Below, piece by piece: positions 45,646-48,684 of a DNA stretch of 64,000 nt. The DNA is from Pseudomonas sp. (GTDB lineage: Bacteria; Pseudomonadota; Gammaproteobacteria; Pseudomonadales; Pseudomonadaceae). Positions within the stretch are counted from its first letter, which is position 1. Every line of letters begins with the position of its first letter. Below the pieces are notes generated by a model, which was not told the origin of the DNA, searched no databases, and saw only the letters and a program-made list of their open reading frames with translations. A program made the translations under genes and the position numbers. The stretch covers positions 49,169 to 113,168 of the forward strand of contig NZ_JAQGNX010000179.1 in NCBI RefSeq assembly GCF_028293835.1, given 5' to 3'.

Positions 45646-46473
45646 TTAATCGCCGTCTTTGGCAACGCCAGCACCAATGATGTGATGGCGTGCCAGAGAT
45701 GCCGCGACGAACCCCGAGGTTTTCATCTCTTCCACAAAGCTCGACAGGTAGGCCGCAACCGCCTCGCCTTTGGCCTTCGGAACGCCCATTGCTTGGCGGA
45801 TAACCATGAAGTGCGGCTCCACAATCCTCAGGCCGCCGACCCTTGTGGCGTCTTTTTCAAGTTGCTGGCGGATTCCGGAAGCCACGTCCAGGTGCTGATC
45901 CAGAAAGCCCTGAACGACCCCCTGAGAGGTGGCCACGCGCACGATCGTCGCGTTGTGCAGTTCACGGGTCAGGAACAAATCATAAGCACTGCCTTTGCTT
46001 GTTGCCACGGTAATGCCGGGCTGGTCGACCTGTTCCAGGGTGTTGATCGGTGAATCGGCCCGTACCGCATAAACACCTTCAATCAACACGTAGGGTTTGG
46101 TGAACTGGATGGCCTGTCCACGTTTGGGGTCGATAGCAAAAAACCCGACGTCGGCCTTGTCCTGCTCAACATTTTCGACTGATAGATTGGCAGAGGGGAC
46201 CACCACCAGTTGTAAACCAACGCCGAGCCGTTTTGCCAATTCTGTCGCAAGGTCAATGGAGACACCCACTGGCTTGCCGGTTTCCGGGTCCTGATTGGCC
46301 AGAATAGCGTTACCCAGATTGATTGATACGCGGAGCGTCCCGCTCGGGGCGAAGGTTGATGCGAGGGCGGGCGACAGCTGATTAGACGCCGAGCCAGCCC
46401 CATGACTGGCATCGGCTGCAATGAACGTTGCGGCAGTGAGGAACACGCGGAGTAACCGGTTGCGGTTGAGCAT
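45646..46473 (-). CDS. Orphan periplasmic substrate-binding protein (polar amino-acid type)
   Basis: MLNRNRLL signal peptide; GTLRVSINLGN, DVGFFAIDPKR, KGSAYDLFL; no permease or ATPase next to it. Confidence 0.8.
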   Translation of the reverse strand: MLNRNRLLRVFLTAATFIAADASHGAGSASNQLSPALASTFAPSGTLRVSINLGNAILANQDPETGKPVGVSIDLATELAKRLGVGLQLVVVPSANLSVENVEQDKADVGFFAIDPKRGQAIQFTKPYVLIEGVYAVRADSPINTLEQVDQPGITVATSKGSAYDLFLTRELHNATIVRVATSQGVVQGFLDQHLDVASGIRQQLEKDATRVGGLRIVEPHFMVIRQAMGVPKAKGEAVAAYLSSFVEEMKTSGFVAASLARHHIIGAGVAKDGD

Positions 46474-46630
46474 GTGATGGGCCTTTTGCTGGGACGTAGA
46501 CGGGGTTTCGCAGCATAACCGCGAAACACCGCGTTGCGGCACCGGATCGATTCCGTAAATCGCACAACCCACTGCGTAGAGCCGGCCCCAAGCGTGACTG
46601 ATTATGCCAGACATATCTTGAGGCATTTCA

Positions 46631-46692
46631 TCACATGTGAGCGATTGCGTCGTCCAGCACTCAAGCGTAGGGTGCTGACTTGTCACATGTGA
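46631..46692. promoter_or_regulatory. Two perfect TCACATGTGA palindromes upstream of yjfI
   Basis: Sites at 46631-46640 and 46683-46692, 52 bp apart, enclosing CAGCAC-N11-GTGCTG. Confidence 0.7.
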
Positions 46693-46710
46693 TGTCTCGG
46701 AGGGCACTCA

Positions 46711-47331
46711 ATGGCTCGCAAAACTTCAACCGACTATATGCGTGAAATGCGCGCACGGCTGACGGCTGCGGGGTACGTCAAAAGGGAGCTTTACGTGCTT
46801 CCTGAAAACGCTGAGGCCTTGAGAAGTATCGAAAAATGTTTACGCCAGCCCTACTTGGGTAACCGAATAAAACTGGAGGAATTCATGACCGAAAATATCA
46901 ATTGGACGATCGATTCGCTGCACTCGGCGTTGGTGGAACTGGACGCGGTGAAAAGCAGTGAAATCGAGTTGAGCCTTGTCCAGGGTACCGAGCAGAGCTT
47001 GAGTCTGGTGATGAATAACTTCGGCGGCTTGCCGATCATCATCGCTATTGCCGGTGACCAGATTTTGGTGGATTCCGTGCTGGTCTATGCGTCTCAGGTA
47101 AAGGACGTCGCAGGGTTCAACGATACGGTTCTGCGCAGCCGGGACATTTTCCCGCTGTCATCGATCGGTATCGAAACGTTGCCTAACGGCGAAACCGTTT
47201 ACAACATGTTCGGCGCACTGAGCGCTGCCTCTTCGCTGACGGTCATCGTCCATGAAGTATTGACCTTGGCAGATAACGTGATTCGCGCCGCTGATGCCTA
47301 CGAAGACTTTCTAACCGCTGATCCACAGTAA
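46711..47331 (+). CDS. yjfI: YjfI/DUF2170 family protein with N-terminal basic extension
   Basis: C-terminal 148 aa with LPIIIAI, IFPLSSIGI, YNMFGALS; N-terminal MARKTSTDYMREMRARLTAAGYVKRELYV; position directly before pspA. Confidence 0.75.
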   Translation: MARKTSTDYMREMRARLTAAGYVKRELYVLPENAEALRSIEKCLRQPYLGNRIKLEEFMTENINWTIDSLHSALVELDAVKSSEIELSLVQGTEQSLSLVMNNFGGLPIIIAIAGDQILVDSVLVYASQVKDVAGFNDTVLRSRDIFPLSSIGIETLPNGETVYNMFGALSAASSLTVIVHEVLTLADNVIRAADAYEDFLTADPQ

Positions 47332-47346
47332 CCGGGAGACACATTA

Positions 47347-48054
47347 ATGAGCCTTTGGAAGAAAATGGTGACCGCTCTACGTGGTGGTGCCTCCGAGGTT
47401 GGCGAAGCAATCGTCGACGCTCAAGCATTACGAATTCTGGATCAGGAAATCCGTGACGCCGATGCCTCGATGCTCGCCGCGCGTAACCAGCTGATACAAA
47501 TCAAGGCCAAGCACAAGTTGTCCGTTCAGCGTGTGGACGAGCACAACAAGAACATCGCCAACTGGGAACAAAAAGCAGTCGCCGCGATGAATAAAGGTGA
47601 GGAAGGCCTTGCGCTGGAATGTGCTGAAAAGGTTTCAGAACTCACAGCGTTGCGCGATCAGGAGAAGGCCGCTGCGGACCAGTTCGGCGCTCAGGTCACC
47701 AAGTTGACGGCTCAGGTTACTAAAGCCGAAAGTCAGATCAAAGGCCTGCGCCAGCAAGCGGACATGGCCAAAGCCCGTGACAGCGTGCAGCGAGCGCAGA
47801 TCAACGCTGCTGCAGCGACTGGCGGCGCCAATGGTCGTCTGGAAACCGCTGTGGGTTCATTGGCGCGTATCAAGCAGCGTCAGGATGAGCAGGACGCCAA
47901 GCTTGAAGCCGCCGAAGAATTAGCCGATGCAGCCAACGGCGGCGATCTTGAACGTCGCCTGCAAGACGCGGGCATTGGTGCTAAAACCGGCGGGGCCGCT
48001 GACGTTCTTGCCAGATTGAAAGCGCAAAGCCAAGCGGGCAACTCGGGTCAATAA
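47347..48054 (+). CDS. yjfJ: PspA/IM30 (bacterial ESCRT-III) family protein, YjfJ-like
   Basis: MSLWKKMVTALRG, ILDQEIRDA, long coiled coil, LERRLQDAGI. Confidence 0.88.
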   Translation: MSLWKKMVTALRGGASEVGEAIVDAQALRILDQEIRDADASMLAARNQLIQIKAKHKLSVQRVDEHNKNIANWEQKAVAAMNKGEEGLALECAEKVSELTALRDQEKAAADQFGAQVTKLTAQVTKAESQIKGLRQQADMAKARDSVQRAQINAAAATGGANGRLETAVGSLARIKQRQDEQDAKLEAAEELADAANGGDLERRLQDAGIGAKTGGAADVLARLKAQSQAGNSGQ

Positions 48055-48064
48055 GCTGCGTCAG

Positions 48065-48101
48065 AAAGCGGCAGACGAGTTGCTCGTTCGCCGCTTTTTT
48101 T
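48065..48101 (+). terminator. Intrinsic terminator between pspA-like gene and rhomboid gene
   Basis: AAAGCGGC-AG-ACGAG-TTG-CTCGT-TC-GCCGCTTT followed by further T residues (T7 run). Confidence 0.75.
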
Positions 48102-48123
48102 GCCCGGCTTCGATGGTGCAGAC

Positions 48124-48684
48124 ATGATCGCCGGAAATGGACTACGAATAATCCTTGGGCTGGCTGGGTTGATGGTCGTGGCACAGGTAATTAACTCGCT
48201 GACTGCCAACAGCCTGCTGCACTTGGGGTTGGTCCCCAGGACGTTGTACGGGCTGCAAGGCATTGTGTTTGCACCCTTCCTGCACGGCTCTGTCCGGCAT
48301 TTGTTGGCCAACCTGCTGCCTTTTATCGTGTTGAGCTGGTTAGTGGCAACCGAAGGTGTTCAGCGTTACGCCCGGGTTGCGACGTTGGTGGCTTTGCTGG
48401 GTGGGCTGATGGTCTGGGTCATCGGTCGGCCTGTGATACACGTGGGAGCGAGCGGGGTAATCTTTGGTCTGTGGGCTTATCTTCTGGCCCGCGCCTGGTA
48501 TCAACGCAGTCTGCCAAGTTTTGCAATCGCCTTGATCACGTTGCTGGGCTACAGCGGATTGATCTTCGGTTTCATTCCGGTGCCCGGGGTCTCGATTGAG
48601 TCACACCTCAGTGGCGCGCTTGCCGGTATCGTTGTGGCCTGGCTGATGCACTCCAGGCGGCTGGTGGAAAAAAGCAGTGGTTAG
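48124..48684 (+). CDS. Rhomboid family intramembrane serine protease
   Basis: PFLHGSVRHLLAN, GASGVIFG (Ser), SHLSGALAG (His). Confidence 0.9.
   Translation: MIAGNGLRIILGLAGLMVVAQVINSLTANSLLHLGLVPRTLYGLQGIVFAPFLHGSVRHLLANLLPFIVLSWLVATEGVQRYARVATLVALLGGLMVWVIGRPVIHVGASGVIFGLWAYLLARAWYQRSLPSFAIALITLLGYSGLIFGFIPVPGVSIESHLSGALAGIVVAWLMHSRRLVEKSSG

Follow-up and report, generated by a model that had tools for sequence, protein, structure and literature searches.

A conserved N-terminal head, paired operator-like palindromes and an internal start at yjfI (bacA) of Pseudomonas: a candidate autoregulatory circuit for a PspA-type operon

The yjfI-yjfJ (bac) operon specifies a widespread membrane system of the PspA/ESCRT-III type, linked to biofilm and virulence traits in Pseudomonas aeruginosa and to heat tolerance in Escherichia coli. 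Here we describe the yjfI gene carried by 64,000 nucleotides of DNA from Pseudomonas sp. (NCBI RefSeq assembly GCF_028293835.1, contig NZ_JAQGNX010000179.1, positions 49,169 to 113,168), hereafter the window; the names given to close homologues likewise point to Pseudomonas. The gene encodes a long form of YjfI, in which an N-terminal extension, termed the head, precedes a DUF2170 domain, and two identical palindromes, termed boxes, lie just upstream. On the sequence evidence we judge it moderately probable that the head binds the boxes, that the resulting autoregulation is mainly negative and that two isoforms are made from the one gene.

The best described relative is BacA of P. aeruginosa (PA3732 / PA14_16140), which Wallart et al. 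(2024) studied as the short annotated protein, a dimer with a type III secretion system (T3SS) chaperone fold (PDB code 8Q8O; PMC10948618). In a bacA transposon mutant the other Bac proteins build up; negative control was proposed, with no mechanism given, and a sigma54 site was proposed upstream of the short gene (PMC10948618). A complex of BacA with the PspA-like BacB has been predicted by AlphaFold2 with a probability of 0.981 in a 2026 paper (PMC13092808). A survey of Psp systems assigns YjfI to the CesT/Tir superfamily and does not mention the head (PMC11237479). In E. coli a 1-nt deletion 80 bp upstream of yjfI turns on the normally silent operon (PMC12492005). Our literature search found no paper on the head, the operators or two isoforms.

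The long open reading frame (ORF) in the window (46711-47331, + strand, as are all features of the operon given here) was read directly and encodes 206 amino acids (aa) including the head. Its ATG at 46711 follows a Shine-Dalgarno (SD) sequence, GGAGGG, at 46699-46704, 6 nt upstream. A second, in-frame ATG at 46885 has its own SD, GGAGG, at 46875-46879, 5 nt upstream, and opens a frame of 148 aa (46885-47331, start M59) that comprises the DUF2170/CesT-like domain alone. The original prediction, which had called two starts, each with a ribosome-binding site, and two 10-bp palindromes 52 bp apart with the second 18 nt before the long start, is borne out at every one of these positions by reading the window.

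Pfam DUF2170 (PF09938) matches aa 64-201 with 160.4 bits against a cut-off of 27 and covers the full model (1-137). Since the match is confined to these residues, the first 58-63 aa are a true extension. PDB entry 8Q8O, the P. aeruginosa BacA, matches aa 63-203 only (E = 2e-34). AlphaFold2 models the DUF2170 body with a predicted local distance difference test (pLDDT) score of about 90 at aa 67-196, with helices and strands in the order of a T3SS-chaperone-like (CesT) fold. The extra 58 aa have an isoelectric point (pI) of 9.6, basic as had been predicted, compared with a pI of 4.05 for the remaining protein. The NCBIfam model NF050185 ('biofilm formation regulator BacA', 206 positions) aligns with aa 1-203 of the 206 at 235.1 bits, below the equivalog cut-off of 300, and we read the window protein as a BacA homologue of the same architecture that falls outside the equivalog threshold.

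The same arrangement is found close to the published protein. A P. aeruginosa-like contig (L147 1501-2120) carries the head in frame, two TTACATGTGA boxes 22 bp apart, the promoter-like elements TTGAAA-17-TAGTGT and an internal GGAGAAGGAGGAAGAC-ATG. In P. aeruginosa the conserved head lies in frame just 5' of the annotated start, where the sigma54 promoter had been proposed.

Box 1, TCACATGTGA, occupies 46631-46640 within a 12-bp extended palindrome-like site (46630-46641) and ends 4 bp 5' of the predicted -35 element. Box 2, the same TCACATGTGA, occupies 46683-46692; it starts 9 bp 3' of the predicted -10 element and lies over the predicted transcript start. The box starts are 52 bp apart and 18 nt separate the end of box 2 from ATG 46711. 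Elsewhere in the 64-kb window there is no match to the box, even with one mismatch allowed. An exact TCACATGTGA occurs three times in the 5.7-Mb genome, where composition would give about 3.7, and the yjfI pair accounts for two of the three. When up to one mismatch is allowed there are 33 sites genome-wide, among which the yjfI boxes are the only pair spaced 12-80 bp apart. The box pair is not due to chance. The third exact copy (contig C101:31538) is single, in an intergenic-looking stretch and with no partner box. A wider regulon was considered and rejected, there being no second paired site in the genome.

Conservation was assessed in 101 long-form loci, made up of 17 relatives of the genome, 80 from a search of one genome per species (544 matches overall) and four from other gammaproteobacterial families, the last drawn from 400 genomes sampled evenly. 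Perfect symmetric 10-mers that fit T(C/T)AC(A/G)(C/T)GT(G/A)A number 154 in the 30.2 kb upstream of the 101 genes, and there is one in the remaining 477 kb of the same loci. At least one box is present in 96 of the 101 loci and at least two in 56. The dominant variants, TCACATGTGA, TCACGCGTGA and TTACATGTAA, are all symmetric, and a change in one half-site is always mirrored in the other and usually made in both boxes, which is expected of a site read by a symmetric dimer. The conserved site reaches 12 bp, with A/T-rich flanks. In 10 other genomes the genome's own box variant occurs in one to eight copies each, near the level of a reversed-pattern control. The yjfI pair provides the only box copies in two genomes (G013 and G383), and in a third (G008) a lone yjfI box is the only copy.

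Are the boxes equally present where the head is missing? The original prediction turned on this comparison, and it is in that prediction's favour: as against 96 of 101 long-form loci, boxes of the long-form type were found upstream of yjfI at none of 17 short-form loci, nor at E. coli K-12 yjfI. The E. coli upstream region (L148 6008-6133) is 126 bp long, A/T-rich and has neither box type. Nine short-form yjfI operons (L019-L021, L125, L126, L129, L131-L133) have two or three 13-bp palindromes of their own, GACATAATATGTC or GCCATAATATGGC, just 5' of the gene; we take these to be a different operator, for another regulator. In the DUF2170 tree two head-less yjfI genes (L018 and L124), both on long branches and with no boxes, sit on the long-form side and may represent joint secondary loss of head and operator. 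Similar boxes were sought near standalone head-like genes and were not found. A conserved adjacent regulator was also considered and rejected, as the upstream neighbour genes vary among species.

A sigma70-type core promoter is predicted between the boxes at 46645-46673, with -35 TTGCGT (46645-46650), a 17-bp spacer and -10 TAGGGT (46668-46673). The assignment draws on geometry shared across species, namely box 1, 3-4 bp, TTGnnn, 16-17 bp, TAnnnT, 2-9 bp, box 2, which 50 of the 54 two-box loci show. In the window, each hexamer matches the consensus at three of six positions, and the geometry places the transcription start near 46680. Aeruginosa-type loci differ in that box 2 lies inside the promoter spacer. 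The locus thus has conserved palindromes that overlap the core promoter of the gene for the putative regulator itself, one mark of an autoregulatory repressor; for binding by the protein and derepression on its loss, the P. aeruginosa bacA mutant offers indirect support.

An in-frame ATG, the second start, stands at the junction of head and body in all 101 long-form loci, in an otherwise variable linker (aa 48-58, 46852-46884) that contains the internal SD and is predicted to be disordered. When the 15 nt upstream are paired with the anti-SD sequence, the duplex reaches -9 kcal/mol or lower for 75% of internal ATGs, compared with 2.5% of all remaining codon positions of these genes; with the limit set at -6.4 kcal/mol the figures are 97% and 8%. 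The SD is also held by synonymous choice. Glutamate at M-3 is encoded by GAG every time (90 of 90), compared with 45% elsewhere in the same genes, and 93 of 95 codons at M-4 have G as their last base. In the four other families, where the linkers are unrelated (SKGGLIS, NQGEIKN, GTGGTN and RRRAG), AAGGAGG, AAGGAGA or AGGAGG is encoded 6-9 nt 5' of the ATG. This pattern has the marks of a ribosome-binding site under selection and not of a decaying relic. A conserved in-frame start with such a site is one mark of a gene with two isoforms, and a headless isoform is very likely made from the internal start. Gene callers sometimes choose the 148-aa form.

At the window locus an SD precedes each start. 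Of the aeruginosa-type loci, at least five (L014, L016, L104, L105 and L147) have a -10-like hexamer that ends 6-7 nt 5' of the long ATG, with no SD there; the long form would in these loci come from a leaderless mRNA and the short form from a strong internal site.

The head (aa 1-47, 46711-46851) is predicted to consist of a basic helix at residues 6-19, a short strand at 23-29 and a helix at 31-45. AlphaFold2 with a 52-sequence alignment of the head alone returns this order, helix 6-19, a short extended segment 23-29 and helix 31-45, at pLDDT 88.5, and the helix-strand-helix outline of the original prediction stands. In the model of the full protein (pLDDT 80.6) the helices span 6-19 and 31-44, the linker at aa 52-62 falls below 50 and the chaperone-like body is confident. 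In all 101 long-form loci the head is in frame with DUF2170 and no stop intervenes, despite a linker of variable length and sequence. The head has 11 invariant residues (Lys4, Tyr9, Arg14, Gly21, Lys24, Glu26, Pro31, Leu37, Glu41, Leu44 and Arg45). The pairwise ratio of non-synonymous to synonymous substitution rates (dN/dS) over 44 head codons is 0.01-0.12. This is strong purifying selection on a protein sequence, and the head is therefore translated.

Among 1.84 billion representative proteins, searched exhaustively with a profile, only 161 clusters match the head. Many of the matches listed are of about 200 aa, as expected of DUF2170 fusions, and others, 42-75 aa long, show this pattern as proteins on their own; an hhalign comparison of heads with these standalone proteins gives a 99.6% probability of homology. 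Two that were looked up (L138 3001-3159 and L140 225-371) are 48-52 aa in length and lie among small ORFs in phage-like DNA. Their neighbours are HTH_3 and GP88-like genes, a setting that resembles the early regions of phages and mobile elements. The head belongs to a small family, as yet without a name, whose members have 45-60 aa and in some cases lie in phage-like DNA. The entry phrog_536, 'transcriptional regulator', matches 14 of 33 standalone relatives (best E 2.9e-6). The MazE-like antitoxin family PF11455, with a gathering score of 22 bits, gives weak matches in 16 of the 33, the best with E 3e-4 and none seen at or above the cut-off; it does not match the window head, and one other head is matched with E = 0.077. 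A distant kinship of the head to MazE-like antitoxins is possible, and the sub-threshold matches, taken with the annotations, make a DNA-binding role plausible. The original prediction had likened the head to ribbon-helix-helix (RHH) or antitoxin domains. The first likeness fails, since the order of elements differs and no RHH family appears among Pfam matches of the head at E up to 10; the second has the weak PF11455 matches of the head's relatives behind it.

DUF2170 is found in 18 of the 400 genomes of the class-wide sample, five of them with the long form, the window's own genome included. In a tree of the DUF2170 part all long forms lie on one side of a strongly supported split, and fusion of the head was therefore probably one old event; the head-DUF2170 combination, as far as the tree tells, probably arose once. 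Box type and head residues go together almost without exception: YM is found with TCAC, YV/YQ with TTAC, and SFYMK...KHE with central GC. Separate genes for the head and for DUF2170 were sought, and the small hits were mostly frameshifted or truncated calls.

In the genome no PspF scores above its family cut-off (the best TIGR02974 match has 281 bits against 443), in agreement with the original prediction of a Psp-like system that lacks it. A sigma54 motif was sought in 46450-46900 and none was found, the best match agreeing at five of 11 positions; a promoter of the type proposed for P. aeruginosa was rejected on that ground. PspF and a sigma54 promoter, which together define a PspF-dependent Psp system, are thus both missing here.

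The anatomy of the locus, its conservation, the selection on it and the restriction of the boxes to yjfI are observed. What we infer from them is that the head binds DNA, that the effect is repression and not activation, that both starts are used and what the signal may be, in the following scheme. Dimerization of DUF2170 would pair two heads, a step suggested by the solved dimer of the P. aeruginosa short form. Each head pair would bind one 10-12-bp palindrome, (C/A)T(C/T)AC(A/G)(C/T)GT(G/A)A(G/T). As box 1 abuts the predicted -35 element and box 2 covers the predicted transcript start, occupancy would repress the yjfI-yjfJ(pspA-like) operon and provide autoregulation in place of PspF. The second start, GGAGG-N5-ATG (46875-46887), would yield the 148-aa headless isoform, which could not bind DNA and is probably the chaperone-like partner of the PspA-like protein. 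One-headed heterodimers with the short isoform may weaken repression, although this is speculative. Binding of the PspA-like protein would be a natural input signal. The original interpretation, in which the long isoform autoregulates and the short isoform lacks DNA binding, is supported, and each comparative test run here went its way. More tentatively, and with the odds against it, we can picture a one-protein membrane-stress switch that replaces PspF: free YjfJ on the CesT-like domain would set occupancy of the twin operators by the head, the headless isoform would tune the response through one-headed heterodimers and buffering of YjfJ, and the head would define a new, small family of DNA-binding folds to which phage regulators also belong.

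Several observations weigh against the proposed autorepression. The predicted helix-strand-helix order is unlike the strand-helix-helix of the RHH domain. Scans of the head alone against Pfam, NCBIfam and PHROGs found no curated family above threshold, profile searches of PDB sequences returned only coiled-coil noise, and Foldseek with the head model gave no PDB hits and nothing significant in BFVD. The association of head residues with box type amounts to one to four evolutionary changes on the tree, too few to count as evidence, and because the long-form clade probably has a single origin the co-occurrence of head and boxes represents very few independent events. The syringae/viridiflava/cichorii group keeps one perfect box only, and five of the 101 long-form loci have no box at all. 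A scan of 46400-47000 with a strict sigma70 consensus and for terminators gave no sites, and the predicted promoter is weak by consensus. Box 1 is centred near -44.5, a position equally suited to activation. Lastly, the transposon in the P. aeruginosa mutant has a resistance cassette, and read-through could also raise the level of downstream proteins.

What other readings do these points serve? The boxes might be operators of an unlinked, clade-specific transcription factor, with the head engaged in binding RNA, membrane or a protein partner. The lack of any curated DNA-binding family matching the head above threshold would fit, as would the few head-box events that follow from a probably single origin, and the short-form operons, with twin palindromes of another type and no fused head, make a trans-acting regulator possible for this type of operon. 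We nevertheless find it distinctly unlikely: the boxes are restricted to the yjfI locus in every genome tested and have changed symmetrically in step with the head lineages, no regulator gene is conserved beside the locus, the relatives of the head are small regulator-like or antitoxin-like proteins, and a dimeric carrier domain suits a palindromic site. Suppose instead that the head does bind the boxes with activation, or a dual switch, as the net effect, box 1 near -44.5 recruiting RNA polymerase to a weak promoter. Class II-type activators bind at the position of box 1, as in CRP-type activation; the predicted promoter is weak, with three matches of six in each hexamer, and the box retained by the syringae group is the distal one. 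Box 2, however, lies over the transcript start or in the spacer, which is typical of a repressor, and the P. aeruginosa bacA mutant has more, not less, of the operon protein (PMC10948618), so that we count activation as decidedly improbable.

The two further alternatives concern the proteins made. If only the long protein were produced, the internal GGAGG-ATG would be a relic of an ancestral start or an SD-like pause site that aids separate folding of the domains. The methionine could have been retained as the first residue of the DUF2170 domain, and a slowing of ribosomes at SD-like sequences within genes has been proposed. This seems unlikely to us when the ATG is kept in 101 of 101 loci inside a variable, disordered linker, when the SD is held by synonymous choice (GAG in 90 of 90 against 45% elsewhere) and is re-encoded by unrelated residues in other families at a proper spacing of 5-9 nt, and when the long start of aeruginosa-type loci has no SD while the internal one is strong. 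The converse takes the short gene, as annotated for PA3732, to be the real one, and the 174 nt before it to be either a leader that is not translated or a small ORF of its own; it has behind it the P. aeruginosa annotation, a crystal structure of the short form and the sigma54 site proposed upstream. We give it almost no credence, faced with a head dN/dS of 0.01-0.12, the lack of any stop between head and DUF2170 in 101 of 101 loci despite changes in linker length, an NCBIfam BacA model that spans the head, and a window in which no sigma54 motif was found.

Downstream of yjfI the first gene is yjfJ/bacB (47347-48054), of the PspA/IM30 family (Pfam PF04012, E = 2e-42) and the sole PspA-family gene in the genome. 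The order after yjfI is PspA/IM30 (yjfJ type), rhomboid, DUF2491 (yjfK), DUF350 (yjfL), DUF1190 (yjfM) and a glutathionylspermidine-synthase-like ligase (yjfC). The rhomboid-family gene (48100-48684), between the PspA-like gene and yjfK, is foreign to the E. coli order. Upstream, a divergent gene on the minus strand (45646-46470) encodes a periplasmic solute-binding protein. The listed 353-aa ORF overextends this gene; the likely start is the methionine of MLNRNRLLRVF..., with a signal peptide, and the intergenic region bearing the boxes would then be about 240 bp.

The analysis supplies the operon with a concrete, testable circuit in outline, in which a domain that is a candidate repressor and a second isoform are set beside an operator sequence and a promoter. 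It further indicates that the BacA studied so far was annotated, expressed and crystallized in a form that lacks the part likely to bind DNA, which could explain why the regulatory mechanism stayed obscure. An unnamed family of very small helix-strand-helix proteins is at the same time flagged as likely to bind DNA.

How does the locus compare with known systems? P. aeruginosa BacA is of the same family, stands first in its operon with the PspA-like gene next to it, and published data point to negative control of that operon. It differs in having been published as a short protein, with a proposed sigma54 promoter and no DNA-binding mechanism, and the window protein lies under the equivalog cut-off. 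The E. coli yjfIJKLMC operon likewise begins with a DUF2170/CesT-like YjfI, followed by PspA-like YjfJ, then YjfK, YjfL, YjfM and YjfC; E. coli YjfI has 133 aa, no head and no boxes upstream, and the window operon has the extra rhomboid after yjfJ. The PspA-PspF phage-shock system resembles the proposed circuit as a PspA-family effector operon under negative feedback via a protein thought to be bound by the effector. Here, by contrast, there is no PspF and no sigma54 promoter, and the proposed regulator is not an enhancer-binding ATPase but an operon-encoded repressor with a head of its own.

Type II antitoxin autorepressors (MazE-like PF11455, RHH) share the plan of a small basic N-terminal module, a flexible linker and a partner-binding part, and bind as dimers to short palindromes over their own promoter, a binding that is putative here. 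The window protein departs from them in its helix-strand-helix order, its folded CesT-like partner domain and the lack of a toxin, and the PF11455 matches are sub-threshold. Regulatory pairs made from one gene by internal initiation are known in the Tn5 transposase and its inhibitor and in the long and short forms of CheA. As in those pairs the internal start is in frame with its own SD, and the N-truncated product keeps the dimerization part and loses the DNA-binding or functional head; the window pair differs in that it is deduced from conservation alone. In the ExsC-ExsD-ExsA system of P. aeruginosa type III secretion a CesT-like chaperone fold also couples partner occupancy to transcription. 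There the anti-activator and the activator are separate proteins, whereas in the window protein the putative DNA-binding module and the chaperone-like domain are joined covalently in one chain.

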